Assembly (NCBI GenBank): GCA_963767005.1
Contig: CAVYCN010000003.1
Location: forward strand, 224,001 to 288,000
DNA from: an uncultured Actinomycetes bacterium
GTDB taxonomy: Bacteria > Actinomycetota > Thermoleophilia > UBA2241
DNA: 64,000 nt
Reading direction: 5' to 3'
Every line of letters begins with the position of its first letter. Position 1 is the first letter of the stretch. The notes below the pieces were generated by a model that saw only the letters and a list, made by a program, of their open reading frames with translations, was not told the origin of the DNA and ran no database searches. A program made the translations under genes and the position numbers. Positions 10,984 through 42,090 of this stretch are shown here, in pieces.

Positions 10984-12051
10984 ATGCGGACACTCACCCT
11001 CGGCGATCGTGGCAAAGAAGTCTCCGACGTGCAGAAACGCCTGCACGCGCTGGGCTACGAGCTCGGCAGCGAGGGCGTCGACGGCTTTCTCGGGCCGCGC
11101 ACCCGCCTGGCCCTGCGCGCCTTTCAGCAGGAGCGCGGCCTGCTCGCCGACGGCGTCCTCGGGGCCAACACCTGGCGCGAGCTCGTCGAGGCCGGCTACG
11201 CGCTGGGCGACCGCCTGCTCTACCTGCGCGTGCCCAACTTCCGCGGCGACGACGTGCTCGCCCTGCAGGTGAAGCTCGACCTGCTCGGCTTCAACGCCGG
11301 CCCCGAGCGTGGCATCTTCGACAGGTCCGTCGAGCGCGCGCTGATCGACTTCCAGCGCAACGCCGGCCTGCCGTCCGACGGCATCGTCGGCGACGACACC
11401 CTGCGCAAGCTCGACGCGCTGCGCAAGGCCGAGTCGGGCCGCGAGGGCAAGAAGATCCCCGACCGCGACGAAGGCTTCGTGCCCGAGACCAGCCTGGCCG
11501 GCGCGGTCATCGTGATCGACCCCGGGCACGGTGGTCAGGACGTCGGCATCGTCTCGCCCGGCGGGCGGCGCGAGAAGGACCTCACGCTCGCCGTCGGCCT
11601 GCGCCTGGCCGAGATGCTGCGGGCCGAGGGCAGCCGCGTGGTCATGACGCGCGAATCCGACCAGACCGTGCCGCTCTACGTGCGCACCGACGCCGCCGAC
11701 ACGGCCACCGCGACCTACCTCGTCTCACTGCACTTCAACGCCAACGAGAGCCCCGCCGCGGACGGTGCCGTCTGTTACTACTTCCAGCGCAGCCACTACT
11801 ACTCCGAGCACGGCGCCCGCCTGGCCGACTACATCGGCGCCGAGGTCGGGCGCCTGTCCCCGGCCGGTTTCATCGCCGGCCTGGGGCGTAACTTCGCCAT
11901 GCTGCGCGAGCCCACCGCGATCGCCGTGCTGGTCGAGCCGCTGTTCCTCACCAACCCCGCCGACGACGCCCGCGCCGGGCGCGCCGACTACATCGAGGCC
12001 GTGGCACGCGCCATCGTGACCGGCTTCACGCGCTACCTCTCACGGGCGTGA
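10984..12051 (+). CDS. N-acetylmuramoyl-L-alanine amidase with two peptidoglycan-binding domains (CwlM-like)
   Basis: Two PG_binding_1 repeats (DGFLGPRT..AFQ; FQRNAGLPSDGIVG) plus Amidase_3 motifs IDPGHGG, EK, SLHFN, LVEP. Confidence 0.88.
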   Translation: MRTLTLGDRGKEVSDVQKRLHALGYELGSEGVDGFLGPRTRLALRAFQQERGLLADGVLGANTWRELVEAGYALGDRLLYLRVPNFRGDDVLALQVKLDLLGFNAGPERGIFDRSVERALIDFQRNAGLPSDGIVGDDTLRKLDALRKAESGREGKKIPDRDEGFVPETSLAGAVIVIDPGHGGQDVGIVSPGGRREKDLTLAVGLRLAEMLRAEGSRVVMTRESDQTVPLYVRTDAADTATATYLVSLHFNANESPAADGAVCYYFQRSHYYSEHGARLADYIGAEVGRLSPAGFIAGLGRNFAMLREPTAIAVLVEPLFLTNPADDARAGRADYIEAVARAIVTGFTRYLSRA

Positions 12052-12911
12052 GCACCGGGCCGACCGACGACGACGGCGGGATCGCTTTCACCGCGACCCA
12101 GCGCCAGCGCCTGCACGAGCTGGGCGCCGACGCCGCGGCCGGCGGGCGGACCTTCGCCGACGCGGGCGCGCGCGACGCGGCCTTCCGCGACCTCGAGACG
12201 AGCTTCGCCGCCGCCAGCCGCGCCGCCCTCGACGCGCTGCGCGCCGGGTCGCGCGTCCCGGCGCTGCGCCGTCTCGAACAGGCGCTGCGGGCGGCGCTCA
12301 GCGACGCCGGCCTGGTCGAAGTCGTGACGCCGACGATCGTCGGAGTCGAGGCGCTGCGCAAGATGGGCATCGAGCCGGGCGGCGAGCTTGCCGAGCAGGT
12401 CTTCTGGCTCGACCGCGACCGCTGCCTGCGGCCCATGCTCGCGCCCAACCTCTACACCCTGATGCGACGCCTGGCGCGGGTGTGGCGGCAGCCCTTCGCG
12501 ATCTACGAGATCGGCTCGTGCTTTCGCCGCGACACCAAGGGCAGCCGCCACCTGAACGAGTTCACGATGCTCAACCTCGTCGAGCTCGGCACGCCGCTCG
12601 AGCGCCGCGACGACCGCCTGCGCGAGCTCGCCGCGGTCGTGCTCGACGCGGCCGGCGTGACCGGCCACGAGCTCGTGCGCAAGCACTCCGAGGTGTACGG
12701 CGACGAGCTCGACGTAGTGGTCGCCGGCGTCGAGGTCTGCTCCACGGCCCTGGGGCCGCACCCGCTCGACGACGCCTGGGGCATCACCGATCCCTGGGTC
12801 GGCCTCGGCTTCGGGCTCGAGCGGCTGCTCGTGGCGCGCGACGGCCTGGCCGGCATCGAGCGCGTCGGCCGCAGCGTGAGCTACCTCGACGGCGTGCGGC
12901 TGCAGCTCTAG
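12048..12911 (+). CDS. pylSc: Pyrrolysyl-tRNA synthetase, C-terminal catalytic subunit
   Basis: FTATQRQRLHEL, CLRPMLAPNLY, EIGSCFRRDTKGSRHLNEFTMLNLVE, SEVYGDELD, GPHPLD.AWGI..PWVGLGFGLERLL; matches the bacterial split-PylRS type; TAG stop. Confidence 0.96.
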   Translation: MSTGPTDDDGGIAFTATQRQRLHELGADAAAGGRTFADAGARDAAFRDLETSFAAASRAALDALRAGSRVPALRRLEQALRAALSDAGLVEVVTPTIVGVEALRKMGIEPGGELAEQVFWLDRDRCLRPMLAPNLYTLMRRLARVWRQPFAIYEIGSCFRRDTKGSRHLNEFTMLNLVELGTPLERRDDRLRELAAVVLDAAGVTGHELVRKHSEVYGDELDVVVAGVEVCSTALGPHPLDDAWGITDPWVGLGFGLERLLVARDGLAGIERVGRSVSYLDGVRLQL

Positions 12912-12977
12912 GCGGCGGCTCATGCGGGACGGGGCCGGTGAGGCTGCCGCCTCATCGGCCCCGTCCCATCGCCGCTC

Positions 12978-13535
12978 TCAGGCGGTCGCGCCCGCGCTCA
13001 CCGTCTCGGCCGGCTCCGCCGCCTTGACGAACTCGGCGTCGACGCTCAGCTTGACCTCGTCGCCGACGAGCAGGCCGCCAGCCTCGGTCACGACGTTCCA
13101 GGTGAGGCCGAAGTCCTTGCGGTTCAGCTTGCCGGTGGCCGACACGCCGATGCGCGTGTTGCCCCACGGGTCGGCGACCGGCCCCGATACCTCGGCGTCG
13201 AGCACGACCTCGCGGGTGACGTCCTTGATGGTGAGGTCGCCGGTGATCGCGTACCGGCCGTCGCCGCCCTCGACCCGCTTGACCACGTAGGTCATCTCCG
13301 GGTACGTCTGGGCGTCGAAGAAGTCGGGCGAGGCCAGGTGACCGTCGCGCTGGGCCTCGCGCGTGTTCACGCTGCCGGTCCGCACCGTCACGGTGCCGCG
13401 CGACCTGCTCAGGTCGTCCTCGTCGATGTCGGCGTCGATCGTGAAGTCGTCGAAGTGGCCGCGCACCGTCGAGACCACCATGTGGCGTACGGCGAACTCG
13501 AGGTTCGCATGCGTTCCGTCTGTCGTCCAGGCCAT
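12978..13535 (-). CDS. YceI family protein
   Basis: HANLEFAVRHMVVSTVRGHF, RDGHLASPDFFD, GDLTIKDVTREV, NRKDFGLTWN; GGAGG RBS. Confidence 0.92.
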   Translation of the reverse strand: MAWTTDGTHANLEFAVRHMVVSTVRGHFDDFTIDADIDEDDLSRSRGTVTVRTGSVNTREAQRDGHLASPDFFDAQTYPEMTYVVKRVEGGDGRYAITGDLTIKDVTREVVLDAEVSGPVADPWGNTRIGVSATGKLNRKDFGLTWNVVTEAGGLLVGDEVKLSVDAEFVKAAEPAETVSAGATA

Positions 13536-13556
13536 CGTGCCCTCCTTTGAAGCATG

Positions 13557-13603
13557 ATGTTTGGCTGGCCAACAAAGTACCCGATAGTTGGCCAGCCAAA
13601 CAT
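13557..13603. promoter_or_regulatory. Probable MarR operator (17-bp perfect inverted repeat)
   Basis: ATGTTTGGCTGGCCAAC-N13-GTTGGCCAGCCAAACAT between divergent yceI and marR. Confidence 0.7.
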
Positions 13604-13620
13604 TCGGGTAGACTACGAGC

Positions 13621-14283
13621 ATGACTCCTGCGGGCAGACACGATGCAGCACGAGCGCCGGGCGGAGACCCCGCCCATCAGGCGACCCCGGCGCCGGCTGC
13701 CTGCGGCGCGGGCCCGTGCGCCGCGTCCGACGCGGACGCCGTCTCAGGCGCACGCACCGGCGAGTCACCCTGCGCGGGCCAGGAGACCGCGGCGCCGGAG
13801 GGGCTCGTCTGCGAGCACTGGCCGCGCAGCACCGCCCTCGCCGAGCGCACCGGCCCGACGGTGCACGCCGTGTTCCGCCTGTCGCGCATGCACCGCACGA
13901 TGGCCGGCCGCCTGCTGCGCGACCTCGGCCTGGCGCCCGGTCAGGAGCTCCTGCTGCTGCAGCTCTGGGACCGCGACCGCTGCTCGCAGACCGACCTCGT
14001 CGAGCGCCTCGGCATCGACCCGTCGACGGTGACCAAGATGCTGCAGCGTCTCGAGCGCGGCGGCTGGGTGCGCCGCGAGCCGTCGCCCGACGACGGGCGC
14101 GTGATGCTGGTGACCCTGACCGCCGCCGGCCGCGACCTGCAGGCCGCGGTCACCGACCTCTGGCGGCAGCTCGAGCACGAGACCGTGAAAACGCTGGCCG
14201 ACGAGGACCGGGCGGAGCTGCTGCGCCTGCTGCGCAAGGTCGAGACCGGCCTGCGCGCCACCTGCCCCGGCGGCGACGGCTGA
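13621..14283 (+). CDS. MarR family transcriptional regulator with N-terminal extension
   Basis: GIDPSTVTKMLQRLERGGWVRR..DDGRV..LTAAG; start uncertain. Confidence 0.88.
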   Translation: MTPAGRHDAARAPGGDPAHQATPAPAACGAGPCAASDADAVSGARTGESPCAGQETAAPEGLVCEHWPRSTALAERTGPTVHAVFRLSRMHRTMAGRLLRDLGLAPGQELLLLQLWDRDRCSQTDLVERLGIDPSTVTKMLQRLERGGWVRREPSPDDGRVMLVTLTAAGRDLQAAVTDLWRQLEHETVKTLADEDRAELLRLLRKVETGLRATCPGGDG

Positions 14284-14290
14284 ACAACGA

Positions 14291-14331
14291 GGACCGGCCG
14301 GGCGGCGCCTGCGGCGCCGCCCGGCCGGTCC
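14291..14331. terminator. 19-bp perfect hairpin between convergent marR and corrinoid gene
   Basis: GGACCGGCCGGGCGGCGCC-TGC-GGCGCCGCCCGGCCGGTCC. Confidence 0.65.
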
Positions 14332-14353
14332 GTCTTCCGCCTCTTGTCGCGCC

Positions 14354-14995
14354 TTACCTGCCGAGCAGGGCGTCGATCTTCTTGACGCCGTCCGAGGCGT
14401 CCTCGGCGTAGGCGTCGGCGCCGATCTGGTCGGCCCAGCGCTGCGTGCAGGGGGCACCGCCGACCACGGTCTTGAAGGGCAGGCCCTCGTCGCGGATGAT
14501 CTTGATGACGCGGCGCTGCTCTTCCATCGTGGTGGTCAAAAGGGCGCTCATGCCGATGATGTCGGCGCCCTGCTCCTTGGCGCGGGCGATGAAGGTCTCG
14601 GCCGGCACGTCGCGGCCGCAGTCGGTGACGTCGTAGCCGTGGGCCTTCAGGTAGGCGATCACGATCGCCTTGCCGATGTCGTGCACGTCGCCCTGCACGG
14701 TGCCGATGATGACGGTGCCCTTCTTCTCGGCGGCGCCGCCCTCTAAGGCCGCGTTACAGACCCGGGTGGCGGCGTCCATCGCCTGGGCGGCGAGCATGAG
14801 CTCGGGCAAAAAGACCTCGCCCGACTCGAAGAGGTCGCCGACCTCGCTGATGCCGGCCACGAAACCCTTGTTGACGATCTCGCCGGGGCTCATGCCGGCC
14901 GCCAGGGCGCGCGTGGCGACGTCCTCGGCGGCGGCGGCGTCGTAGTTGACGATCGAATCGATCGCTTCCTGGATGAGCTCGTCTGTGTTGGCCAT
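14354..14995 (-). CDS. Methyltransferase-cognate corrinoid protein (MttC/MtbC/MtmC-like)
   Basis: Cap domain GISEVGDLFESGEVFLPELMLAA; B12-binding GTVQGDVHDIGK...SALLTTT...GGAP; GAGGAG RBS. Confidence 0.92.
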   Translation of the reverse strand: MANTDELIQEAIDSIVNYDAAAAEDVATRALAAGMSPGEIVNKGFVAGISEVGDLFESGEVFLPELMLAAQAMDAATRVCNAALEGGAAEKKGTVIIGTVQGDVHDIGKAIVIAYLKAHGYDVTDCGRDVPAETFIARAKEQGADIIGMSALLTTTMEEQRRVIKIIRDEGLPFKTVVGGAPCTQRWADQIGADAYAEDASDGVKKIDALLGR

Positions 14996-15184
14996 AGCGT
15001 GCAACTCCTCCTCAAGAAGTCTGCCGTCCACTCGCCTCGCAAGCGATGGGTGCGCAAGCCCGGCGAACCGCGCCCGTACGCGTGGCGACGGTCCGCTTCG
15101 TTCGCGCACAAGTATACAGGTTCGCCCGAGCGCAAGCGTCCCACGGCGAGCGCCGGCGACACCGCGTGTTGGTACAATCGGGCC

Positions 15185-16063
15185 ATGCGTTACGTCGGCG
15201 CCGTCATCCGTCCGCCCAGCGAGGCTGCGAGCCTGATCGTACAGGTCACCTACGGCTGCTCCAACGCCTCGTGCGACTTCTGCTCGACCTACCTCGACAA
15301 GCCCTTCGCAGTGCGCCCCGCCGACGAGGTCGAGCAGGACCTGGCCGACCTGCCGCTCGCCATCAAGGAGCGCGTGCGCCGCGTCTTTCTGGCCGACGGC
15401 GACGCCCTCGCGCTGTCGCGCCGCCGGCTCGAGCACATCCTCGGGCTGCTGCGCCGCGAGCTGCCGGCCCTGGAGCGCGTGAGCTCCTACGCCAACGCCC
15501 GCAACCTGCTCACCAAGAGTCCCGACGACCTGGGCGCGATCCGCGCCGCCGGGCTCGAGCTGCTCTACCTGGGCCTCGAGTCGGGCGACGAGGAGACCCT
15601 CGCCGCCATCCACAAGGGCATCACCGTGGCCGAGCAGATCGAGGGTTGCGCCCGCGCGACGGCGGCCGGCTTCGAGCTCTCGGTCACCGCCATCCTCGGC
15701 CTGGCCGGGCCCGCACGCTCGCTCGCCCACGCGCGCGCCACGGGCGCCGCCCTGTCGGCCATCGACCCGCGCTACATCGGCGTGCTCAGCCTCATGGTCG
15801 AGCCCGGTACGCGCACGGCGGCGCGGGTCGCGTCGGGCGAGTTCGTCGTGCCCGACGCCTTCACCATGCTGCGCGAGCTGCGCGAGATCGTCGCCACGAC
15901 CGACGTGACCGACGCGCTGTTCCGCTCGAACCACGCCTCGAACTACCTGCCGGTCGGTGGCCGCCTGCCGCGCGACAGGGACGCCATGGTGGCGGCCCTC
16001 GACGGCGTGCTGTCGGCGCCCGACCGGGCCCGTCTCAAGCCCGAGGAGTGGCGCCTGCTGTAG
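15185..16063 (+). CDS. Radical SAM protein of unknown function
   Basis: RPPSEA, CxxxxCxxC-type motif GCSNASCDFC, FLADGD, YLGLESG, FRSNHASNY; TAG stop. Confidence 0.85.
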   Translation: MRYVGAVIRPPSEAASLIVQVTYGCSNASCDFCSTYLDKPFAVRPADEVEQDLADLPLAIKERVRRVFLADGDALALSRRRLEHILGLLRRELPALERVSSYANARNLLTKSPDDLGAIRAAGLELLYLGLESGDEETLAAIHKGITVAEQIEGCARATAAGFELSVTAILGLAGPARSLAHARATGAALSAIDPRYIGVLSLMVEPGTRTAARVASGEFVVPDAFTMLRELREIVATTDVTDALFRSNHASNYLPVGGRLPRDRDAMVAALDGVLSAPDRARLKPEEWRLL

Positions 16064-16091
16064 CGGCTGGTGGCGCGACCGCGTCGCGCGG

Positions 16092-16433
16092 CTAGTGTCC
16101 GGTGTCCCGCTCGCGCAGGAACGACCCGTAGCCCCGCCGGAACTTGGTCGCGGCGTACTTCTGCAGCTTCCACTCCGGGATGCGGCACTGCGGGCAGGCC
16201 TCGAAGAAGAGCTTGTTGCGCAGCCAGCGCGCCGAGCGGCTCGTCTTGGAGTCGCGCACGATCATGACCTTGCCGCAATGGGTAGTCAGGCGCGCCCTGC
16301 TGCCCAGCACCTCGAACTCCTTGACGCCGTGCAGCAGGCCGCGGCGCGAGGGCCACAGCTTCATCTTCTCGACGAGCCTGAAGAGCGGCACCTGCTTGCG
16401 GTAGTAGACGACCTTGTTGGGATCGGTGGGCAC
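16092..16433 (-). CDS. pylSn: Pyrrolysyl-tRNA synthetase, N-terminal tRNA-binding subunit
   Basis: YYRK..LVEKMKLWPSRRGLLHGVK, THCG, SRSARWLRNK, CPQCRIPEWKLQKY; TAG stop. Confidence 0.95.
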   Translation of the reverse strand: MPTDPNKVVYYRKQVPLFRLVEKMKLWPSRRGLLHGVKEFEVLGSRARLTTHCGKVMIVRDSKTSRSARWLRNKLFFEACPQCRIPEWKLQKYAATKFRRGYGSFLRERDTGH

Positions 16434-16523
16434 GCCTGCGAGTGTAGCAAAGCCGGGCGGCCGCGAGGAACGCGGGCGGCGGCGCCGAAGCGGAACTTTT
16501 CACAGTCGTCTATCATCTGACCA

Positions 16524-18908
16524 GTGGCGCGACAGGCAGGCGCGGCCAGCGAGCGAGCGGAGTCGCACGAGGTGACGGGCAGGACCGAAGGAGCACGACG
16601 GCGGGGCGCCGGGCGTCCCCACGCCGTGCGCCTACGCCCCGCCCCGGGCACACGCCTCCACCGCCGCCTGCCGATCACGGCCTGGCTACCCACCTATCAG
16701 CGCCGCTTCCTGCGCGACGACACGATCGCCGCGCTGACCGTCATCGGCCTGCTCCTGCCCGAGTGCATGGCCTACGCGCAGATCGCCGGCGTGCCGCCCC
16801 AGGCCGGCCTCTACGCCACGCTGGCCGGCCTGACCGTCTACGCCCTCTTCGGCACCTCGCGCCAGATCATCTGCTCGCCGACCTCGACGGCCGCCATCAT
16901 GGCGGCCGCCGTCGTGGCCGCGCACGGCAGTCGCAGCCCCGCGCAGGCCATCACTCTGGTGGCGATGGTGGCCGTCATCGTCGGCCTGTTCATGGTGATC
17001 GCCGGCGTCGCCCGCCTCGGCTTCATCTCGGAGTTCCTCGCCCGCCCCGTGGTCACCGGCTACGTGACCGGCCTGGCGATGACCATCATCGCGCGGCAGG
17101 TGCCGAGCCTGCTCGGCATCCACGTCACGACCTCGGCCGACTTCTTCCGGGTCGCCTGGGCCGACCTCACGCACCTCGACGAGGCCAGCCTGGCGACGGC
17201 CGCGCTCAGCGCGGTCGCCCTCACCCTCCTGTTCCTCGCCCGGCGCTGGCCGCGCTTGCCGGGCGCGCTCACCGTGCTCGTGCTCGGCGTGATCGCGGCG
17301 GCCGTCCTGCACCTTGGCAGTCACGGCGTGGCCGTCGTGGGCACCATCCCGAGCGGCCTGCCGCTGCCGCGGCTGCCCCACCTGCACGGCGTCGACCTCG
17401 TCACGCTGCTGCCCAGCGCCGCCGGCATCGCCATCGTCGTCTACGCCGAGGCGCTGTCCGGGGCGCGGACCTTCGCCGTGCGCCATAGCTACGAGATCGA
17501 CGCCAACCAGGAGCTCGTGGCGCTCGGCCTGTCGAACATGAGCTCCGGCGCCTTCGGCGGCATCGTCGTGAGCGGCGGCCTGTCGGGCTCCGCCCTCGCC
17601 GACACGAGCGGCGCGCAGTCGCAGCTCACCGCCCTGATCGGCGCCGGCGTGCTGCTCGTCATGGTCTTCACCGTCACGCGCGTCGGCCACGACCTGCCCG
17701 AGGCGATCCTCGGCGCGGTCGTGGTGCGCGCCGTCTGGGGCCTGATCGACTTCGGCGCCCTGCGTCGCTTCGCCGGCGTGCGCGTGCTCGACGCCGCCCC
17801 GGCGGTCGCCGCTCTCATCGGCGTCCTCGCTCTGGGCGTGCTGCCCGGCCTGGGGGTGGCCGTCGGTCTGTCGCTCGCCATCCTGATCTACCGCTCGAGC
17901 CGGCCCCACGCCGCGGTGCTCGGGCGGGTGCCCCACTCCAAGACCTACAGCGACGTGTCGCGCCATCCCGAGAACGAGACGTTCCCCGGCCTGCTGATCT
18001 TCCGTCTCGACGGCCAGCTCTTCTTCGCCAATGCCGGCTTTGCCGTCGACCGTCTGAACCAGTTGCTCTCCGCCATGCAACCGTCGCCCCGCGTCGTGAT
18101 CTGGAACATGGAGTCGACCACCGACCTCGACGTGACGGCCGCCGAGACGCTGCTGCGCCTCACCCGCACCCTGCGCGAGAGCGGCCGCGACGTCGTGTTC
18201 GCCCGCGTCGGCTCGGCCGTGATCGACGTCTTCGGGCGCTGCGGCATGCTCGAGCTGATCGGCGAGGACCACCTCTTCCTCACGGTGGACAGCGCCGTGC
18301 AGGACTGCCTGCACAGCCGCCTCGCGGTGATCGCGGCGCTCGAGGCGCAGCTCAAAGAGGCGACGGCGGCCTGCATCATCGCTCACGGCGTGGCCGCCGG
18401 CGAGGTCACCGTGGCCGACGCCTACCGGACGATCGCCGACATCGAGGGCCGCGGCGACGCCATGCGTGGCGAGCTCGTCGCCCGCCTGTCGGGCGTGCTC
18501 GTCGCGCCGATCGACCGCGAGGACCTGTTCCGCCTCTCGCGCTCGATCGACGACGTCCTCGACAACCTGCGCGACTTCATCCGCGAGTGGGACCTCTACG
18601 AGATCGATGCCGCGAGCGCCTACCTGGGCCTGCTCGACGCCACCGCCGACGCGATCGCCGACCTCAAGCGCGCCGTACACGCCGTGGCCACCGACCCCAA
18701 GGACGTGAAGCAGGCGCTCACCTCGAAGGAGTCGGCCGAGGAGATCCGCCGGCTCTACGACGTCGAGCTCGGCCGGCTGTTCCACGGCACGCTCACGATG
18801 GAGGTCGTGAAGTGCCGCGAGGTGCTGCGCAGGCTCGACGTCGTCGGCCTGCGCTTGAACGAGGCCGCCGACCGGCTCTCCGACGCGGCCATCAAGCGCT
18901 GGGCCTGA
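16524..18908 (+). CDS. SulP anion transporter with STAS domain fused to a C-terminal DUF47/PhoU-like domain
   Basis: PECMAYAQIAGVPPQAGLY, DANQEL.ALGLSN, STAS FRLDGQLFFAN; C-terminal IEGRGD...PIDREDLFRLSRSIDDVLD; start uncertain. Confidence 0.85.
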   Translation: MARQAGAASERAESHEVTGRTEGARRRGAGRPHAVRLRPAPGTRLHRRLPITAWLPTYQRRFLRDDTIAALTVIGLLLPECMAYAQIAGVPPQAGLYATLAGLTVYALFGTSRQIICSPTSTAAIMAAAVVAAHGSRSPAQAITLVAMVAVIVGLFMVIAGVARLGFISEFLARPVVTGYVTGLAMTIIARQVPSLLGIHVTTSADFFRVAWADLTHLDEASLATAALSAVALTLLFLARRWPRLPGALTVLVLGVIAAAVLHLGSHGVAVVGTIPSGLPLPRLPHLHGVDLVTLLPSAAGIAIVVYAEALSGARTFAVRHSYEIDANQELVALGLSNMSSGAFGGIVVSGGLSGSALADTSGAQSQLTALIGAGVLLVMVFTVTRVGHDLPEAILGAVVVRAVWGLIDFGALRRFAGVRVLDAAPAVAALIGVLALGVLPGLGVAVGLSLAILIYRSSRPHAAVLGRVPHSKTYSDVSRHPENETFPGLLIFRLDGQLFFANAGFAVDRLNQLLSAMQPSPRVVIWNMESTTDLDVTAAETLLRLTRTLRESGRDVVFARVGSAVIDVFGRCGMLELIGEDHLFLTVDSAVQDCLHSRLAVIAALEAQLKEATAACIIAHGVAAGEVTVADAYRTIADIEGRGDAMRGELVARLSGVLVAPIDREDLFRLSRSIDDVLDNLRDFIREWDLYEIDAASAYLGLLDATADAIADLKRAVHAVATDPKDVKQALTSKESAEEIRRLYDVELGRLFHGTLTMEVVKCREVLRRLDVVGLRLNEAADRLSDAAIKRWA

Positions 18909-18985
18909 GGGAGCGCACCCGGCTCACCGCGACCGCGGTGGATCAGGAGAAAGTCGTTCGGGGTCTTCCTGTGCAGGGAGATCGG

Positions 18986-19058
18986 TGGCGGGGAGTAGGG
19001 GAGTTACACCCCTCTACGTGGATTTAGAGTCCACGCTGATCCTTCCGATCGACCCCCC
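18986..19058 (-). tRNA. pylT: tRNA-Pyl (anticodon CUA)
   Basis: GGGGGGT C GATC-GGAAG-GATC A G CGTGGA-CTCTAAA-TCCACG TAG AGGGG-TGTAACT-CCCCT ACTCCCC G CCA: one nt between acceptor and D arms, 5-nt D loop, 6-bp anticodon stem, 3-nt variable loop, no TTC, G73, encoded CCA. Confidence 0.96.
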
Positions 19059-19101
19059 GCGCCGAGGCCAAGGGTAGCTCATCGGCGGCCGCGCGACAAA
19101 G

Positions 19102-19923
19102 TCAGCGCGTGAGCGCCTCGACGGCCATCGCGGCCACACCGAGGGCGAGCGGCTCGTGCACGAGCCGCTCGCCCAGCGCCCGGGCCGCGGCTGCCGTGAC
19201 GCCGGGCGGCAGGCCCGGCGAGCTCACCACGCCGTCGCTGCCCACCCAGCCGGCGTCGATCAGGTCGGGCGTGGGGGTGGCGTCGAGCACGAACCGGCTG
19301 CGCGCGAGGCCGTCGGCCAGCGTGACCGGCGTGACCTGCGGCAGCTCGGCGACGATGGGCGCGAGACGCGCCTCGTCGCGCTCGCAGACGAGCACGTCGG
19401 CGCCGAGCGTGACCAGACGGGCGGCGGCGGCCCGGCCGACGGGGCCGAGGCCGATCAGCAGGACGGGCCGGCCGGCGAGGCCGGCGGGCCCGGCGGCGGC
19501 CGCGAGCGCCGCGACGTAGGCGTGCGCCGTGCAGGGATCGTCGTCGGCGACCACGCGGCGCGCGAAGTCGAGCGCCAGGAACCTGCCGTCGTCGGCGGCG
19601 AAGACGAGGTCGTCGCCGGCCTTCAGGGCCTCGCCGAAGCCGGCCACGTCGGTGGCGTCGGTCACGCGGGCGCGGCAGCCCAGGCGGGCGCAGATGGCGG
19701 CGACGCAGTCGACGAAGCCGGGGATGACGCCCTCGCCGCTCGTGATCGGCACGACGGCGACGGCGGCCTGGGCGAGGGCGTCGCGGGCGACACCCGCGGA
19801 TGCGCCGCAGGCCCGCGCGGCCAGTGCGACGAAGTCGCAGCCGGTGAGCGCCACCAGGCGCCCCTCGACCTCGTCGAGATGCGCGGTCAGCGTACGGACG
19901 TCGTCCTCGACCAGTCTCGTCAC
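19102..19923 (-). CDS. pylD: Pyrrolysine synthase (3-methylornithyl-N6-L-lysine dehydrogenase)
   Basis: MTRL, VVPITSGEGVIPGF, TDVAGF, ADD..FLA, NAD-binding GLGPVG, PGLP.G, HEPLALGVAAM; GAGGAG RBS. Confidence 0.93.
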   Translation of the reverse strand: MTRLVEDDVRTLTAHLDEVEGRLVALTGCDFVALAARACGASAGVARDALAQAAVAVVPITSGEGVIPGFVDCVAAICARLGCRARVTDATDVAGFGEALKAGDDLVFAADDGRFLALDFARRVVADDDPCTAHAYVAALAAAAGPAGLAGRPVLLIGLGPVGRAAAARLVTLGADVLVCERDEARLAPIVAELPQVTPVTLADGLARSRFVLDATPTPDLIDAGWVGSDGVVSSPGLPPGVTAAAARALGERLVHEPLALGVAAMAVEALTR

Positions 19924-19941
19924 CGCGACTCCTCCTCGCCC

Positions 19942-21240
19942 CTACTCGAGCACGACGTCGAGGCCGTACTCGCCCGCCAGGCGGTCGACGGCGGCCGCGG
20001 CGCGCATGCGCGCCTCGGCCGCCGTCTCGCCTCTCGTCATGATCACGGCGACCCAGCCGCCTGCCCGGCTGCGGGCGCGCGCCTCGCGCGCCTCGCCGAG
20101 GTCGACCACCTTGGCCCCGAGCGCGCGTTCGACCGGCCCGTCGGTCAGCACCACGTCGGCGCCCCACAGGCCCTCGCAGCGACGCAGGGGACCGGCCGCC
20201 CCGACCACGTGCTCGCCCAGCACCTGCACCCGCCCGTCGGCGACGAGCACGTGCTCGTAGACGGCGCCGCGCCGGGCGGCGGTCGCGGCCGGTCCGGCGG
20301 CCAGATCGGCCGGCACGGCGCCGCTCGCGAACGTCTCGGCCAGGACCTGGACGATGTTGACGTCGCTCGCGTGGTAGGCGCAGGCCGGCGTCTGGCTGGG
20401 CAGCCGCGCGTCGATCTCGAGCACCTTGGGCACGCCGGCGTGCCCCATCATGACCTCGACATCCATCACGCCGCCCAGCCCGGCGGCGGCGCCCGCGCCG
20501 GTGCGACCGACGCCGGCCGCGAGGCGCCGGCTCACCTCGTCGAGCGCGGCCAGCGCCCCGTCGTCGATCAGGTCGGAGCCACCGCCCTGCGCGGCGGGGT
20601 CCTTCGCCGCCTGCGCGACCGGGGCGACGACGCGTTTGCAGTCCCAGCCCGCGTCGAACTCGAGCCAGGTGGGCGCCAGCGTGACCGTCGCGCCACCGTA
20701 CGAGACCATGTCGACCGAGAGCGAAGGCCCGGGCACGTACTCCTCGATGACGGCGTCGGCGCCGCTTGCGGCCAGACGGGCGCGCGCGAGCGCGAGCTCG
20801 GTATCCGACCAGACGAGCTCGACCTGCACGCTGCCGCTCCCCACGCTCGGCTTGACGATCACGGGAAAGCCGCAGGGCCAGGGCGCCGGGCGGGGCACGT
20901 CGAGCCGCGCGAACAGCTCGTTCGAGCGCAGCTTGGACTGGGTCACCGCGTAGGCGTCGGGGTCGAAGAGCAGCGGCACGCCCAGCCCTGGCACGAACGA
21001 GGCGAGAAAGGCGAGCGTGCGCTCGTCCTCGCAGGCCGGCAGCACGGCGTCGCACGACAGGAGCACCTCGCGAGTGCGGGCCGGGTCGACGGCGACGTCG
21101 AACACGTGGCTCTCGGCGGCCAGGCCGGCCGCCGGCCGCCCCGGGCGCCGGTCGACCAGCACGACGTCGTAACCGGCCTCGCCGGCCAGGTACGCCGCCT
21201 CGGTGCCCTGCAGCTTGCCGCCGACGACCGCGAGCCTCAT
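19942..21240 (-). CDS. pylC: 3-methylornithine--L-lysine ligase (ATP-grasp)
   Basis: VVGGKLQGTEAAYLA, FPVIVKPS.GSGS, EEYVPGPSLS, WDCKRV, LEIDARLPSQTP, GEHV; ATGA overlap with pylB; TAG stop. Confidence 0.94.
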   Translation of the reverse strand: MRLAVVGGKLQGTEAAYLAGEAGYDVVLVDRRPGRPAAGLAAESHVFDVAVDPARTREVLLSCDAVLPACEDERTLAFLASFVPGLGVPLLFDPDAYAVTQSKLRSNELFARLDVPRPAPWPCGFPVIVKPSVGSGSVQVELVWSDTELALARARLAASGADAVIEEYVPGPSLSVDMVSYGGATVTLAPTWLEFDAGWDCKRVVAPVAQAAKDPAAQGGGSDLIDDGALAALDEVSRRLAAGVGRTGAGAAAGLGGVMDVEVMMGHAGVPKVLEIDARLPSQTPACAYHASDVNIVQVLAETFASGAVPADLAAGPAATAARRGAVYEHVLVADGRVQVLGEHVVGAAGPLRRCEGLWGADVVLTDGPVERALGAKVVDLGEAREARARSRAGGWVAVIMTRGETAAEARMRAAAAVDRLAGEYGLDVVLE

Positions 21241-22370
21241 GCGGGGCGCTCGGCGGCCGCCACCCCGTCGCCGCCCGCGGCGATCGCGGCCGCCGCCCGG
21301 CGGCCGCGCGCGGCCGCCACCCAGGCGGCGTACTCGGCCGCGCTCGCGACCCGCAAGCCTGACTTGGCCAGCCGTTCCACGACGACGGGCGCGGTGCGCA
21401 AGCCGGCGTCGATGTCGAGCTCGGACTGCGAGACGCCGGCGAGACCGGTGTGGGGCGGCACGAGCGACGTGACGACGTTCGCGCCGGCGGCGATGCGCGA
21501 CTCGAGGCCGGCGATGCCGTCGACGTCGAGCGACGCGGGGATCAACCGGTCGGGCATGGCCAGGCGCATGGTGGCGATCGTGACGAGCTCGCCGAGCCGT
21601 CCGGCCGGTCGCAGGTCGGCGAGCGGGGTGCCGCGCTGCGGCACGAAGGTCATGACGCGCACCTGGTCGAGCGGCTCGGCCCGCATGGCGGTCACCGTCA
21701 TGGCGCGCTCGGCCACCGTCTCGCCGACGCCGAGCAGCATGCCGTCCTCGACCAGCATGCCGCGCGCGGCGGCGTCGAGTCGCGCCTGGGCGCGCTCGTC
21801 GAAGTCCTGACCGACCCGCAGGCGGTCGTACAGCTCGCGGGCCTGCGTCTCCTGGTAGCAGGCGTACCACTCGGCGCCGGTCGCGGCCAGAGCGGCGAGG
21901 GCGCCGGGCCCGAGCACGCCCGGCGAGGCCATCACCGGCAGGCCGGTGGTGGCGCGCACCGCCGACACGAGCACGAGAAAGGCGTCGAACTCGCGGCCCT
22001 CGCGGTAGCGCGGGTCCTCGCCCATGGTGAGGTCGATCAGGTGGACGCCTGATCCGGCGAGGCCGACGCTGATCGCCACGACCTCGTCGAGCGACTTGCG
22101 GTACCGCGGCCCCGCGCGGTTGCTGCGACGGTACAGGCAGAACGTGCAGTCGTTGCGACAGTACGTCGAGAAGTAGACGAAGCCGTAGAGAAAGACGGCG
22201 TCGCCGAACCGCCGCCGGCGCAGCTCGCTCGCGGCGGCGAACAGGTCGGCCGCCGCGGCCTGGTCGTCGACCGCGAGCAGCGTGGCGATCTCGCTGTCCG
22301 ACGGCCCCTGCCCGGCGAGCGCCCGTTCCAGGATCGGAGCGATGGCGGCCGACGCCGCGTCGGGCCTCAT
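21237..22370 (-). CDS. pylB: Methylornithine synthase (radical SAM lysine mutase)
   Basis: VFLYGFVYFSTYCRNDCTFCLYR, SGVHLIDLTMGEDP, WYACYQET, QVRVMTFVPQ.GTP, LIPASLDVDG, GANVVTS, GLAGV. Confidence 0.95.
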   Translation of the reverse strand: MRPDAASAAIAPILERALAGQGPSDSEIATLLAVDDQAAAADLFAAASELRRRRFGDAVFLYGFVYFSTYCRNDCTFCLYRRSNRAGPRYRKSLDEVVAISVGLAGSGVHLIDLTMGEDPRYREGREFDAFLVLVSAVRATTGLPVMASPGVLGPGALAALAATGAEWYACYQETQARELYDRLRVGQDFDERAQARLDAAARGMLVEDGMLLGVGETVAERAMTVTAMRAEPLDQVRVMTFVPQRGTPLADLRPAGRLGELVTIATMRLAMPDRLIPASLDVDGIAGLESRIAAGANVVTSLVPPHTGLAGVSQSELDIDAGLRTAPVVVERLAKSGLRVASAAEYAAWVAAARGRRAAAAIAAGGDGVAAAERPA

Positions 22371-24072: not shown

Positions 24073-24077
24073 GGGCC

Positions 24078-24608: not shown

Positions 24609-24611
24609 CGG

Positions 24612-26427: not shown

Positions 26428-26438
26428 CGCCCGACCGC

Positions 26439-37654: not shown

Positions 37655-39547
37655 CTACACCTCGGCGCCGGCCACGACGCCGAGCGCCGCGCGCTCGTCG
37701 CCGGTCAGACGCTGGACAGCCTCGAAGCGGCAGACCTGACGGCAGGTGTCGCACTTCGTGCAGGCCGCCAGGTCGATCACATGGGGCTGTTTGCGCTCAC
37801 CGCTGATCGCCCCCACCGGGCACTTCTTGGCGCAGAGCATGCAGCCCGTGCAGGTGTCGGCGTCGATGTGGTAGCTCACGAGGGCGCTGCAGGCCCGCGC
37901 CGGGCAGGCGCCCTTGTAGATGTGGGCCTCGTACTCGTCGCGGAAGTAGCGGATCGTCGTGAGGACCGGGTTGGGCGCCGTCTGGCCCAGGCCGCAGAGG
38001 CTGGTCCGCTTGATCGTGACGGCCAGCTTCTCGAGGCGCTCGATGTCGCCGTCCTCGCCCTCGCCGGCGGTGATGCGCTCGAGGATCTCGAGCATGCGCT
38101 TGGTGCCGAGGCGGCAGGGCACGCACTTGCCGCAGCTCTCATTCTGCGTGAACTGCAGGAAGTACCGCGCGAGGTCGACCATGCAGGTCTGGTCGTCGGC
38201 CACGACCATGCCGCCCGAGCCCATGATGGCGCCCGTCGCGGCCAGGCTCTCGTAGTCGATCGGCGTGTCGATGAGCGCGGCCGGCACGCAGCCGCCCGAG
38301 GGGCCGCCGAGCTGCACGGCCTTGAAATCGCGCCCGCCCTTGATGCCGCCGCCGACGCCGTAGACCATCTCGCGGATGGTCGAGCCGATCGGCACCTCGG
38401 CGAGGCCGCCGTTCACTACCTTGCCGGCCAGCGAGAAGGCCTTGGTGCCGCGGCTCTTCTCGGTGCCGAGCGCCGCGTAGGCCGCGGCCCCGTGCGTGAT
38501 GATCCAGGGGATGTTGGCGTAGGTCTCGACGTTGTTGATGTTCGTCGGCTTGCCCCACAGGCCCGAGACCGCCGGGAACGGCGGCCGCGGCCGCGGCATG
38601 CCGCGGCGGCCTTCGATGCTCGCCATGAGGGCCGTCTCCTCGCCGCAGACGAAAGCGCCGGCCCCCTCCTTGATCTTCAGGTGGAAGTCCCAGTCGGTGC
38701 CGAAGACGTGATCGCCGAGAAAGCCGTGCTCCTCGGCCTGGGCGATCGCCATGCGCAGGCGCCGCACGGCCAGCGGATACTCGGCGCGCACGTAGATGTA
38801 ACCGTCGCGCGCGCCGATCGCAAAGGAGCCGATGATCATGCCCTCGATCACGGCGTGCGGGTCGCCGTCCATGATCGAGGCGTCCATGAAGGCGCCGGGG
38901 TCGCCCTCGTCGCCGTTGCAGATCAGGTACTTCTGATCGCCCTTCGAGGCCGCCGCGAACTTCCACTTCTGGCCGGTCGGAAAGCCGGCGCCGCCGCGGC
39001 CACGGAGGCCCGAGGCCAGGACCTCGTCGATGACCCACTGGGAGGTCTTCTCGGTCACGACGGTGCGCGCGGCGGCGTAGCCGCCGCGCGCGATGTACTC
39101 GTCGATGCGCTCGGGATGGATGATGCCGACGTCGCGCAGCGCGATGCGCTTCTGCTGGGCGTAGAAGGGGATGTCGTGCCAGCAGGCGATGCGTTCGCCC
39201 GTGCCCGGCTCGACGTACAGCAGGTCCTCGACGACCGCGCCGCCGACGAGGTGCTCGGCGACGATGCGCTTGACGTCTTTGGCCTTGAGCTTCGGGTAGT
39301 ACGTCTCGTCGCCCGACACGACGGCGAGCGGGCCCTGCGAGCAAAGGCCGTGACAGCCGATGATCGCGACCTCGACCTGGTCGGCAAGGCCGGCCTCGGC
39401 GATCTCGTGCTCGAAGGCCTCGAACATCTTCATCGAGCCGGCGAACACGCAGGCGGTGCCGGCGCAGACCTGGACACGGCGGCGCCCGTCGGACGCGGGC
39501 ACCACGCCGACGCGCACGCCCTCGGTAGCGGTCGTCGAGGCGCTCAT
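37655..39547 (-). CDS. NuoF/HydB-like NAD(H)/FMN-binding subunit with extra Fe-S domains
   Basis: N-terminal CAGTAC..GCHGLC, SGLRGRGGAGFPTG, CNGDEGDPGAFMD, GAFVCGEETAL, ESCGKCVPCR, two C-terminal CxxCxxCxxxC motifs. Confidence 0.92.
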   Translation of the reverse strand: MSASTTATEGVRVGVVPASDGRRRVQVCAGTACVFAGSMKMFEAFEHEIAEAGLADQVEVAIIGCHGLCSQGPLAVVSGDETYYPKLKAKDVKRIVAEHLVGGAVVEDLLYVEPGTGERIACWHDIPFYAQQKRIALRDVGIIHPERIDEYIARGGYAAARTVVTEKTSQWVIDEVLASGLRGRGGAGFPTGQKWKFAAASKGDQKYLICNGDEGDPGAFMDASIMDGDPHAVIEGMIIGSFAIGARDGYIYVRAEYPLAVRRLRMAIAQAEEHGFLGDHVFGTDWDFHLKIKEGAGAFVCGEETALMASIEGRRGMPRPRPPFPAVSGLWGKPTNINNVETYANIPWIITHGAAAYAALGTEKSRGTKAFSLAGKVVNGGLAEVPIGSTIREMVYGVGGGIKGGRDFKAVQLGGPSGGCVPAALIDTPIDYESLAATGAIMGSGGMVVADDQTCMVDLARYFLQFTQNESCGKCVPCRLGTKRMLEILERITAGEGEDGDIERLEKLAVTIKRTSLCGLGQTAPNPVLTTIRYFRDEYEAHIYKGACPARACSALVSYHIDADTCTGCMLCAKKCPVGAISGERKQPHVIDLAACTKCDTCRQVCRFEAVQRLTGDERAALGVVAGAEV

Positions 39548-40143
39548 CGCCCGCCTCCGGCGCCGGCCGCGCCGTCGCCCGAAGCGCCGTCGTCGGCGCC
39601 CGCGGCGCCGCGCAGGTCGTCGCCGGTGAGGCCGAGCTGCTCGAGCACGCCGATGATGTAGGTGCGCGTGGAGTCGGGGGTGAGGTTGCCGAACGTGTCG
39701 CTGTCGATGCGCATGACGGGCGCCTGCGAGCAGGCCCCCATGCAGGCGACCGAGTCGAGCGTGAAGCTCATGTCGGGAGTGGTGCCGCCGTCGGCCACGC
39801 CGAGCTCCTGCTCGAGGGCCTCGGTGATGCGCGGCGCGCCCGCCACGTGGCAGGCCGTGCCGTGGCAGACGAAGACCTTGTGACGCCCGCTGGGCTCGGT
39901 CGAGAACTGCGCGTAGAAGGTGACGATGCCGTAGATGCGCGCCGCCGGCACGCCCGACAGGCGCGCGATCTCGTTGACCACGGGCTCCGGCAGGTAGCCG
40001 TAGTGCGCCTGTACGTGCTGCAGCACGGCGATGAGGTTGCCGTGGGGGTCGATCTCGCCGACCACCCGGCCGACCTCGGAGAGGTCGAGCTCGGGCACGG
40101 CCGCGCCGGCCTGGGCCTGAGAGTCTGTCACGCGCCTGGGCAT
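39544..40143 (-). CDS. NuoE/HydC-like [2Fe-2S] subunit
   Basis: YGYLP, TFYAQF, CHGTACHV, CMGACSQAP. Confidence 0.92.
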   Translation of the reverse strand: MPRRVTDSQAQAGAAVPELDLSEVGRVVGEIDPHGNLIAVLQHVQAHYGYLPEPVVNEIARLSGVPAARIYGIVTFYAQFSTEPSGRHKVFVCHGTACHVAGAPRITEALEQELGVADGGTTPDMSFTLDSVACMGACSQAPVMRIDSDTFGNLTPDSTRTYIIGVLEQLGLTGDDLRGAAGADDGASGDGAAGAGGGR

Positions 40144-40315
40144 GTCCTACCTTCCGCTGTCGCTCCACCGCGATCGGCCCCGTGGGGGCCTTCCACCATC
40201 AACGTGCCGCCACGTGCCCGGCCGCGCCCGGCGCCCGCAGGCGCCGGCGCCGAGCCGGTGTCGTCATTGTCGCGCCTCGGCGTCGAGGCGCGCAACCGAG
40301 GCGTCCCGCGCCGAG

Positions 40316-40355
40316 GCGCCGGTGGCGGGGGCGTCGACGCCCCCGCCACCGGCGC
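40316..40355. repeat. Perfect 40-bp palindrome after folD
   Basis: GCGCCGGTGGCGGGGGCGTC|GACGCCCCCGCCACCGGCGC. Confidence 0.7.
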
Positions 40356-40365
40356 TCGCGGGCTG

Positions 40366-41247
40366 TCAGGCGCCGCCGGTCTGGGCCTGGCAGGCCGCCA
40401 GGGCGTTCTTGAGCAGGATCACGTTCGTCACGGGGCCGACCCCGCCGGGCACCGGCGTGACCTTCGAGGCGACCTCGCAGACGGCGTCGAAGTCGAGGCT
40501 GCCGACCTGCTTGCCCTCGATGCGGATCGTGGTCACGTCGACGACGACCGCGCCGGGCTTGACCATGTCCTTCTTGATCAGGTTCTGCACCGGCGCGGCG
40601 CAGATCAGCACGTCGGCCTCGCGGCAGGCGGCCGCCACGTCCTTGCTGAAGACGTGGACCACGTGCACCGTCGCATTCTTGTTCAGGCAGAGCAGGGCGG
40701 CCGGCTTGCCGACGATGTTCGAGTGGTTGACGATCGTGACGTTCAGGCCCCTGTCCTTGCCCTCCCCGTCGACGTACATCAGATCGACACCCTCACGCGC
40801 GAGGATCTCCATGCAGGCCGACGGCGTCGCCGGAGCGAACAGGAAGTCGCCGAGCAGCACGTGGCCGATGTTGGCCGGGTTCACGCAGTCGAGGTCCTTG
40901 ATGGGGGCGATCGCGTTGAAGACGGCGTTCTGGTCGATGTCGCCGGCCATCGGCATCAGGGCGAGGATGCCGTGCACCGCCGGGTCGGCGTTGAGGGTCG
41001 CGATCAGGTCGAGCACCTCGGCCTGGCTCGTGCCGGCCGGCAGCGTGTGGTTGAAGTAGGCGAAGCCCACGGTGCCCGTGTTCTTCTCGATCTGGCCGCG
41101 ATAGAACTGCGCGCCGCCGTCGTCGCCGACGAGGATCGTCGCGACGCCCGGCTTGACGCCACGCGCGGCGAGCTTCTCGACCTCGGCGACGATCTCGGCA
41201 CGCACCTGTTCGGCGATCGCCTTGCCGTCGATGATCTGCGCTGTCAT
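40366..41247 (-). CDS. folD: Methylenetetrahydrofolate dehydrogenase (FolD family, probably monofunctional)
   Basis: IIDGKAIA, KDLDC, PATP, SNIVGKP, TPVPGGVGP. Confidence 0.9.
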   Translation of the reverse strand: MTAQIIDGKAIAEQVRAEIVAEVEKLAARGVKPGVATILVGDDGGAQFYRGQIEKNTGTVGFAYFNHTLPAGTSQAEVLDLIATLNADPAVHGILALMPMAGDIDQNAVFNAIAPIKDLDCVNPANIGHVLLGDFLFAPATPSACMEILAREGVDLMYVDGEGKDRGLNVTIVNHSNIVGKPAALLCLNKNATVHVVHVFSKDVAAACREADVLICAAPVQNLIKKDMVKPGAVVVDVTTIRIEGKQVGSLDFDAVCEVASKVTPVPGGVGPVTNVILLKNALAACQAQTGGA

Positions 41248-41299
41248 GTCGTTCCAGCCCTTCTGTCGTCGTGGGGCGCGGCCCTGCGGCGCGCGCGGC

Positions 41300-41941: not shown

Positions 41942-42028
41942 GGCTTATCCTCCGATCACTGGCGTTCGCTCGATGTCGGGGCCGGTCCGGCGGCCGCGGC
42001 GCGCAACCGCGCACGGACGGCGGCGGCG

Positions 42029-42070
42029 AGGCGGGGGCGGCGGCGCCGTACGGCGCCGCCGCCCCCGCCT
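42029..42070. repeat. Perfect 42-bp palindrome between fhs and fchA
   Basis: AGGCGGGGGCGGCGGCGCCGT|ACGGCGCCGCCGCCCCCGCCT. Confidence 0.7.
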
Positions 42071-42090
42071 GTCCGGCCCGCGGACCGCGT

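Follow-up and report, generated by a model that had tools for sequence, protein, structure and literature searches.

The 64,000-nt stretch of DNA analysed here (the window; gene coordinates are positions in this stretch, and gene counts come from a simple in-house gene caller) very probably carries an intact, natively inherited pyrrolysine (Pyl) system with a split synthetase, likely serving 16 amber methyltransferases of the same genome, with UAG remaining a stop elsewhere. The sequence evidence points to a system that is real, complete, native, and probably functional. A preliminary description of the window had proposed a complete set of pylSc, pylSn, pylB, pylC, pylD, and a tRNA with a CUA anticodon, and all six parts (five protein genes and the tRNA) were confirmed where it had placed them: the model searches that it had suggested for PylB, PylC, PylD, PylSc, and PylSn all gave scores above the curated NCBIfam cut-offs, and the tRNA was detected by ARAGORN. 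Since the pylSc and pylB models exceeded their cut-offs in only one of 14 control genomes (M. acetivorans), chance matches were excluded.

PylB converts lysine to 3-methylornithine, to which PylC joins a further lysine; oxidation by PylD then yields pyrrolysine, with which PylSc and PylSn charge tRNA-Pyl. In this genome, PylB, PylC, and PylD would make pyrrolysine from two lysines, and PylSc and PylSn would charge tRNA-Pyl for the insertion of Pyl at the UAG codon of 16 methyltransferases. Charged tRNA-Pyl would compete with release factor 1 (RF1) at every UAG, and partial read-through may suffice for the methyltransferases. These enzymes would demethylate tri-, di-, or monomethylamine, passing the methyl group to corrinoid proteins (one of which is encoded in the cluster), a single methyl-corrinoid:tetrahydrofolate (THF) methyltransferase would hand the methyl group to folate, and MetF, FolD/FchA, Fhs, and a selenocysteine formate dehydrogenase would oxidise it to CO2, the electrons passing to Hdr/Mvh-type complexes.

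Components of the pyrrolysine system

The six parts of the system in the window were as follows.

12048..12911, plus strand: pylSc, catalytic subunit of split pyrrolysyl-tRNA synthetase, 287 aa, TAG stop (TIGR02367, 297.8 bits; cut-off 178)
16092..16433, minus strand: pylSn, tRNA-binding subunit, 113 aa (TIGR03912, 122.2 bits; cut-off 51)
18986..19058, minus strand: pylT, tRNA-Pyl(CUA), 73 nt (ARAGORN)
19102..19923, minus strand: pylD, 3-methylornithyl-N6-lysine dehydrogenase (TIGR03911, 194.7 bits; cut-off 150)
19942..21240, minus strand: pylC, 3-methylornithine--lysine ligase (ATP-grasp), TAG stop (TIGR03909, 257.5 bits for a piece beginning 12 codons in; cut-off 248)
21237..22370, minus strand: pylB, radical SAM methylornithine synthase (TIGR03910, 428.6 bits; cut-off 348)

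The order to which the host belongs consists of one family with 89 genomes (species), hereafter the family; the genomes taken from it, from a second family of the same class (f4), and from the phylum were samples, many of them incomplete. The open reading frame was intact in all five pyl protein genes. PylSc aligned end to end with PDB 3DSQ (residues 14-286; E value of 1e-87), which we take to be the protein of Desulfitobacterium hafniense. In 33/33 family PylSc rows, the catalytic arginines were invariant, as were L301, A302, L305, Y306, N346, Y384, and W417 of the pocket (M. mazei numbers, assigned to the motifs on our own assumption). The intact catalytic motifs and absence of frameshifts claimed in the preliminary description were borne out. 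The translation of PylB contained CxxxCxxC and that of PylSn His/Cys zinc ligands, motifs whose roles we presume. The M. mazei numbering was adopted from the header of the supplement of Guo 2022.

tRNA-Pyl folded as a cloverleaf (z -2.6); it had G73 and G1:C72, a single base ahead of the D stem, and a D loop of 5 nt. G73, G1:C72, the one-base acceptor-D connector, and a small D loop are described for tRNA-Pyl in the accessible text of PMC7609411, and these features were found together with the CUA anticodon, as in class S tRNAs. The length was 73 nt: two bases, not one, connected the D stem and the anticodon stem of 6 bp, so that the anticodon arm can be read either as 6 bp with a 3-nt variable loop and a 2-nt connector, or as 7 bp with 2 nt and a 1-nt connector. 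This two-base form was shared by all 42 tRNAs held by the 43 family loci examined, and in all 42 the second connector base can pair with the first base of the variable loop (G-U in 24, G-C in 14, A-U in 3, and C-G in 1). Among the 22 distinct sequences, the seventh pair showed 10 one-sided changes and 1 two-sided change, and its covariation probably carries limited weight, given the single two-sided case and shared ancestry. Across the same 22 sequences, 99.2% of 506 cells paired (0/500 shuffles reached this value), with compensatory changes in 8 pairs.

A metagenome scan permitting both forms returned at least 118 loci, and 53 were accepted as tRNA-Pyl among the matches listed. Among these, 45 had the one-base form (GC of 35-64%, diverse) and 8 the two-base form, all 8 with the sequence signature of the family (GC of 65-74%); the extra base was found in 0/45 tRNAs of the other type. 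The tRNA-Pyl of f4 was 72 nt long with one connector base and U73 instead of G73 (8/8). The exotic features of tRNA-Pyl named in the accessible text of PMC7615293 are long D loops and long variable loops. A viral contig from IMG/VR (L271:1781-3083) ended in an intact, family-type 73-nt tRNA-Pyl directly adjoining an open reading frame that we take to be integrase-like from its motifs, which suggests a temperate phage integrating at tRNA-Pyl.

The following class S features were found: the catalytic subunit PylSc, carrying class II motifs and a Pyl pocket; PylSn as the product of a gene of its own, 3.2 kb away from pylSc and on the opposite strand; PylB, PylC, and PylD, present and intact; a CUA tRNA with G73, G1:C72, a one-base acceptor-D connector, and a small D loop; and an in-frame TAG at the Pyl position of mttB, mtbB, and mtmB (see below). 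Judged by them, the pyrrolysine system belongs to class S, with a gene order and a tRNA form specific to the family, and is not a new kind of system.

Amber methyltransferases and the reading of UAG

A genome scan for mttB, mtbB, and mtmB with in-frame TAG, which had been proposed from the window, yielded 16 amber methyltransferase genes with one TAG each: 7 mttB, 8 mtbB, and 1 mtmB. There were 41 MTTB matches (approximately 38 genes, three being in two pieces), of which 7 had one internal TAG; one TAG was present in 8/8 MtbB matches and TAG in 1/4 MtmB matches. The 16 TAGs fell in one alignment column per methyltransferase family, and since the genes were only 48-79% identical, they are not assembly duplicates. 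When one mttB and the mtmB were read through and aligned with PDB 7XCM and 1TV2, TAG faced the Pyl position. The three MtmB-family genes without TAG were located at C19:119913-121256, C2:314112-315473, and C3:104519-105868, and with approximately 31 Pyl-free MttB-family genes, the methyltransferase repertoire was very large.

In the family, mtbB was found in 86/89 genomes with up to 14 matches each, and those listed had one TAG each (468 further matches exist). It was missed in G006 (61% complete), G022, and G023. In the latter two (1.7-1.8 Mb, 98% complete), pylSc, pylB, mtbB, and acsB were all not found, and they may represent a reduced lineage that abandoned the use of methylamines.

The genes might be intact but an idle relic, or the odd tRNA might no longer be charged, and the departure of tRNA-Pyl from the canonical architecture is in favor of this. 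Against it stand the open frames, the pocket residues conserved in every family row, the compensatory changes in the tRNA, and amber mtbB, which nearly all family genomes kept and which disappeared along with pyl from G022 and G023. We consider a relic very unlikely.

For the downstream steps, the genome contained 16 B12-binding matches, one methyl-THF:corrinoid methyltransferase (MT2), one RACo activator, MetF, and a molybdopterin enzyme with one TGA (predicted selenocysteine formate dehydrogenase, Fdh), while Hdr/Mvh-like and hydrogenase genes scored below the cut-offs. Part of the methyl branch lay in the window.

37655..43773, minus strand: methyl-branch genes fhs, fchA-like, folD-like, and nuoE/nuoF-like (NCBIfam and PF01268; NCBIfam scores above cut-off for fhs and nuoE, below for fchA, folD, and nuoF)

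The methyl branch of an acetogen (MT2, MetF, FolD, Fhs, and Fdh) was present with a corrinoid activator. Acetyl-CoA synthase (acsB) was found in 60/89 family genomes, and most relatives could therefore be able to make acetate from methyl groups.

Among the 3021 called genes, 1912 ended in TGA, 976 in TAG (32%), and 133 in TAA. In samples of 100 kb, TAG ended 31/70 and 22/74 genes in two Pyl-positive relatives, and 16/77, 22/78, 20/89, 24/84, 31/75, and 13/80 genes in six relatives without detected pylSc (the last is G045, whose Pyl-free label is doubtful); in these samples, no TAG avoidance or depletion was observed relative to the Pyl-free range of 16-41%. RF1 was present, with PxT and GGQ motifs. 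Because TAG still ends 976/3021 genes, the code at UAG is best described as ambiguous, and not reassigned.

When 738 TAG-ending genes were tested for paralogues aligning across the stop, coding signal beyond it was found in 8 known mttB/mtmB, one binding protein, and three gene-boundary cases; mtbB could not surface in this test, all of its paralogues being amber. The binding protein, an ABC substrate-binding protein (SBP_bac_5; C13:17276-19066, L197), had an in-frame TAG inside its Pfam domain, and orthologues at 76-77% identity had no stop; either the assembly is wrong at this TAG or the amber mutation is tolerated. As for further Pyl proteins, this private TAG was the only one found. The read-through extension of an ornithine-racemase-like gene was not supported by Pfam. 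A distinctive read-through context was also considered: G followed TAG in 12/13 amber methyltransferase genes examined, but also in 424/976 called TAGs, and the signal was confounded by a conserved next residue.

The 16 amber methyltransferases and the in-frame TAG of the SBP_bac_5 gene might be taken as signs that TAG has been reassigned to pyrrolysine genome-wide, as a bacterial counterpart of archaeal Code 34. This is highly improbable: the share of genes ending in TAG was within the range of the six pylSc-free relatives, the paralogue test surfaced nothing besides the cases above, the TAG of SBP_bac_5 was private and absent from its orthologues, RF1 was retained, and reading through TAG would create RpsR-RplI and AtpA-AtpG fusions (proteins that we take to be these by name). 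Code 34 is recognized by conserved in-frame TAGs beyond the methylamine methyltransferases and by TAG not being an ordinary terminator, and here we found one non-conserved case and 976 TAG ends. According to the accessible text of Kivenson 2024 (10.1101/2024.09.30.615893), Code 34 has not been observed in bacteria, and this genome appears to be no exception.

Several observations weigh against an intact Pyl system confined to the methyltransferases. Back-up stops within 5 codons were less frequent after TAG than after TGA (4.3% vs 8.1%), and read-through would add a median of 66 residues; with no extra back-up stops and extensions of this length, the cost of leaky read-through is not visibly buffered. 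G045 (93% complete) had TAG-containing mtbB, and pylSc and pylB were not found; the gap is most simply a missing contig. In this assembly, AcsB had 0 matches, so that the complete Wood-Ljungdahl pathway of an acetogen was not found.

Host and inheritance of the cluster

The window sits on a contig (C3) of 457,575 bases in a genome of 3.44 Mb (19 contigs, 100% complete, 4.87% contaminated), with a GC content of 70-73% in all contigs. A close PylSc was found in 11 named genomes, those of Thermoleophilia, Actinomycetota, or Actinomycetes bacteria. The PylSc of bog_752 was 84% identical and fell inside a 100%-supported clade with those of the window and its genus (a quick tree of 78 rows); Bog-752 is classified as Thermoleophilia; UBA2241; UBA2241 in the accessible supplement of Ellenbogen 2024 (PMC10805028). 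As these close-PylSc genomes are Thermoleophilia or Actinomycetota and bog_752 shares the PylSc clade, placement of the host in the class Thermoleophilia (Actinomycetota) is well supported, and family and genus names of UBA2241 type may be inferred. GatB of the window, one of the proteins from which the preliminary description had proposed to classify the contig, was compared with one genome each at increasing distance: identity was 91% within the genus, 78% within the family, and 61, 58, and 54% in three further families of Thermoleophilia. The actinobacterial host suggested there is thus supported by both GatB and the relatives of PylSc. One of the markers invoked for it, the MshD-like GNAT, was weak evidence (79.9 bits vs a cut-off of 163). 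Near-identical duplicated segments were present on different contigs (C4:430319-435684 and C3:320201-325761; C6:241889 and C15:5192; C6:16004 and C9:9012), and may account for the contamination estimate of 4.87%.

PylB exceeded the cut-off in 68/89 genomes of the order, and pylSc was found in 73/79 other family genomes, in 9/61 genomes of f4, in 0/260 genomes of ten other families of Thermoleophilia, and in 2/401 genomes sampled across the phylum, both in Thermoleophilia. cwlM adjoined pylSc in 41/41 family loci and in 0/9 f4 loci, and the order cwlM-pylSc-corrinoid-(rSAM)-pylSn-pylD-pylC-pylB (rSAM, radical SAM-type gene) was repeated across genera of the family. The third-position GC (GC3) of the five pyl genes was 0.95-0.965 (58th-87th percentile), close to the genome median of 0.946, in agreement with the GC likeness noted previously.

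In the PylSc tree that had also been proposed, the family formed a single clade (support of 100/98; 35 rows, without two long-branch rows and most family rows). Patristic distances of PylSc and RpoB were correlated in 16 family genomes (Spearman 0.735; 0/5000 permutations as high), G067 and G072 being placed differently in the two trees. G022, without the pyl system, nested inside the family on RpoB, which suggests that it lost the system. The PylSc of f4 formed a separate clade; joining it to the family cost 21.6 log-likelihood units, and with an AU p of 0.078, a single origin of pyl in the two Thermoleophilia families is neither shown nor rejected. Because the system is family-wide, has a fixed cwlM neighbour, matches the codon usage of the host, and largely follows the RpoB tree, we regard it as old, native, and not chimeric, and the long residence suspected from the window alone is supported by GC3, gene order, and RpoB congruence.

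A recent horizontal import or assembly chimera could be argued from the rarity of Pyl in the phylum (by which the family ancestor probably imported pyl), the gene order unlike the compact T-Sn-Sc-B-C(-D) of f4, the discordant G067 and G072, and a second pylB and pylD copy that does look imported (GC3 of 0.82, 1st percentile), but the GC3 of the main cluster, the near-universal and cwlM-linked pylSc, the single PylSc clade with its RpoB correlation, and the host kinship gradient of GatB, only 5 kb off, leave this barely tenable and recent transfer, in our assessment, refuted. The same GC3, cwlM linkage, RpoB congruence, and GatB gradient speak against the chimeric contig that the preliminary description had named as a risk.

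The second copy belongs to an island at C4:545126-554336 that holds, besides the extra pylB and pylD, an amber mttB, another MttB-family gene, a corrinoid protein gene, and two permease genes, but no pylC. Its GC3 was 0.82 for pylB/pylD and 0.86 for the amber mttB. The island PylB and PylD were 56% and 47% identical to the window copies, and the PylB grouped with a sequence of genus g11 (support of 91/92); the island is possibly a later import adding Pyl synthesis capacity. At four f4 loci of 16 kb (L106, L107, L109, and L113), no pylD match was found beside pylC.

A selenocysteine (Sec) system was also found, with selD, selA, selB, and tRNA-Sec. TGA took the place of the catalytic cysteine codon in an AhpC/TSA peroxiredoxin and occurred once in the molybdopterin enzyme, and the genome therefore likely uses the full set of 22 amino acids.

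C12:109464-109910 (L199), C4:372050-376409, C4:389248-389345, and C19:162081-163349: Sec-related loci

Known systems and the neighbourhood of the cluster

The implied novelty of pyrrolysine in this phylum was not sustained, since actinobacterial Pyl itself is already in print. In its accessible part, Guo 2022 (PMC9630628) counts two Actinobacteria among 81 bacterial PylRS genomes (Actinobacteria bacterium ADurb.BinA094 and Thermoleophilia bacterium MBE0528218.1), a number repeated in PMC11764691; it provides two PylSc sequences, and that part holds no PylSn entry and no description of a cluster, family spread, or tRNA for them. Since 11-residue motifs of the two were matched in 1 and 14 loci of the family, both sequences are probably from the same family as that of the window. 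Actinobacteriota genomes at Stordalen Mire express Pyl-mttB/mtbB, with Bog-752 named among the most active methylotrophs (Ellenbogen 2024, PMC10805028, as far as accessible). Those Actinobacteriota are likewise Thermoleophilia of order and family UBA2241, and bog_752 falls in the PylSc clade of the window; Pyl was inferred there from amber truncation of mttB, and pylB/pylS were not found in the accessible supplement text. No description of family-wide pyl inheritance in Thermoleophilia or of the 73-nt tRNA was found in the literature searched, although figures, supplements, and subscription papers may hold one.

Among the closest known systems was that of D. hafniense (class S; PDB 3DSQ and 2ZNI), with separate pylSc and pylSn, PylB, PylC, and PylD, and a CUA tRNA with G73, G1:C72, a one-base connector, and a 5-nt D loop. 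In contrast, the genes here lie on two strands around a corrinoid protein and are anchored to uppP-cwlM, the tRNA is 73 nt long with an extra base before the anticodon arm, and positions 309 and 401 of PylSc are M and A. The f4 system shares the split PylS, amber methyltransferases, and a high-GC Thermoleophilia host, but differs in its patchy occurrence (9/61), compact T-Sn-Sc-B-C order among mtxB genes, 72-nt tRNA with U73, and separate PylSc clade (48-53% identity). Deltaproteobacteria with Sec and Pyl (Kivenson 2021, PMC8318568, accessible text) also combine both expansions in one genome, where a Pyl trimethylamine methyltransferase supplies a methyl branch that runs in the oxidative direction and includes a Sec formate dehydrogenase; they belong to another phylum, and their sink is sulfate reduction.

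Bacterial pyrrolysine is usually presented as patchy, in Bacillota and Deltaproteobacteria, with two actinobacterial table entries (PMC9630628, accessible part). On the genomes sampled here, Pyl is a near-universal, inherited trait of one uncultured Thermoleophilia family, tied to many amber methyltransferase copies that standard annotation truncates, and this bears on estimates of who consumes methylamines ahead of methanogens. The genome also offers a bacterial case for studying tolerance of an amber suppressor when a third of genes end in TAG. PylSc was at most 53% identical to any aligned sequence outside the family clade, and 55% identity is an empirical threshold for likely cross-reactivity (Beattie 2023; PMC11467909, accessible text). 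Together, the 73-nt tRNA and this divergent PylSc offer a candidate orthogonal pair that would be new and inexpensive to test. A bolder and rather doubtful proposal would be that the family pair is a distinct class S subtype, with the extra base and seventh pair as a recognition element and mutual orthogonality with the pairs in use given this PylSc identity, and that the 89-species family is an overlooked, vertically Pyl-encoding group competing with methanogens for methylamines.

The pyl cluster was non-contiguous. The plus strand carried uppP-cwlM-pylSc, followed by yceI, marR, the corrinoid protein gene, the radical SAM-type gene, pylSn, and sulP, and the minus strand pylT-pylD-pylC-pylB; yceI, marR, the corrinoid protein, the radical SAM gene, and sulP are thus interspersed. 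Strands of the individual neighbours were as follows.

10984..12051, plus strand: cwlM, CwlM-like peptidoglycan amidase (Pfam Amidase_3 and PG_binding_1)
12978..14283, both strands: yceI (minus) and marR (plus) (Pfam YceI, MarR)
14354..14995, minus strand: methyltransferase cognate corrinoid protein, MtbC/MttC-like (TIGR02370, 218.8 bits; cut-off 215.3)
15185..16063, plus strand: radical SAM-type protein, conserved inside the cluster, not Pyl-specific
16626..18908, plus strand: SulP-family anion permease with STAS and DUF47 domains (TIGR00815, Pfam)

The corrinoid protein is a conserved cluster member and adjoins pylSc in most family loci. By comparison of gene orders, the yceI/marR insert was present in close relatives and absent from more distant family loci, and these two genes are probably not part of the Pyl system; the sulP insert was common only to close relatives. 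The radical SAM-type protein, a label that we presume from its Cys motif, matched no NCBIfam family at E<=1e-15. Its gene was found in 67/79 family genomes; as a new Pyl component it was rejected, since 42/61 f4 genomes have a radical SAM gene vs 9 with pylSc.

The GTG start of pylSc overlaps the TGA stop of cwlM (GTGA), and the two genes are probably translationally coupled. An extended -10-like box of the housekeeping type (TGCTACACT) was located 7 nt ahead of the pylSn start, so that the pylSn mRNA is probably leaderless. A sigma-70 scan detected no promoter, and an Rfam search of the window no regulatory RNA. From the overlap of pylSc with cwlM and the box ahead of pylSn, we infer that the PylSc/PylSn synthetase is probably constitutive, and any control would act on pyrrolysine supply or pylT. 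In Acetohalobium, decoding depends on substrate.

TAG stops ended pylSc (12909-12911), pylSn (16092-16094), pylC (19942-19944), and selA and selB (C4:374445 and 376409). In relatives, TAG ended pylSc in 23/41 and pylSn in 6/8, above the genome rate of 32% (these are kin and not independent). The TAG of pylC was in frame with pylD, 18 nt on; a PylC-Pyl-PylD read-through fusion was rejected because the pylC stop was TGA in 28/30 relatives, mostly overlapping pylD out of frame. Upstream of pylB, an operon (23056-27668) contained a homocitrate-synthase-like gene (TIGR02660, above cut-off), aconitase-family large and small subunits, a cyclophilin, and an isocitrate/homoisocitrate dehydrogenase-like gene. 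It might supply 2-oxoglutarate by a Re-citrate route, or lysine, from which Pyl is made, by an aminoadipate route.

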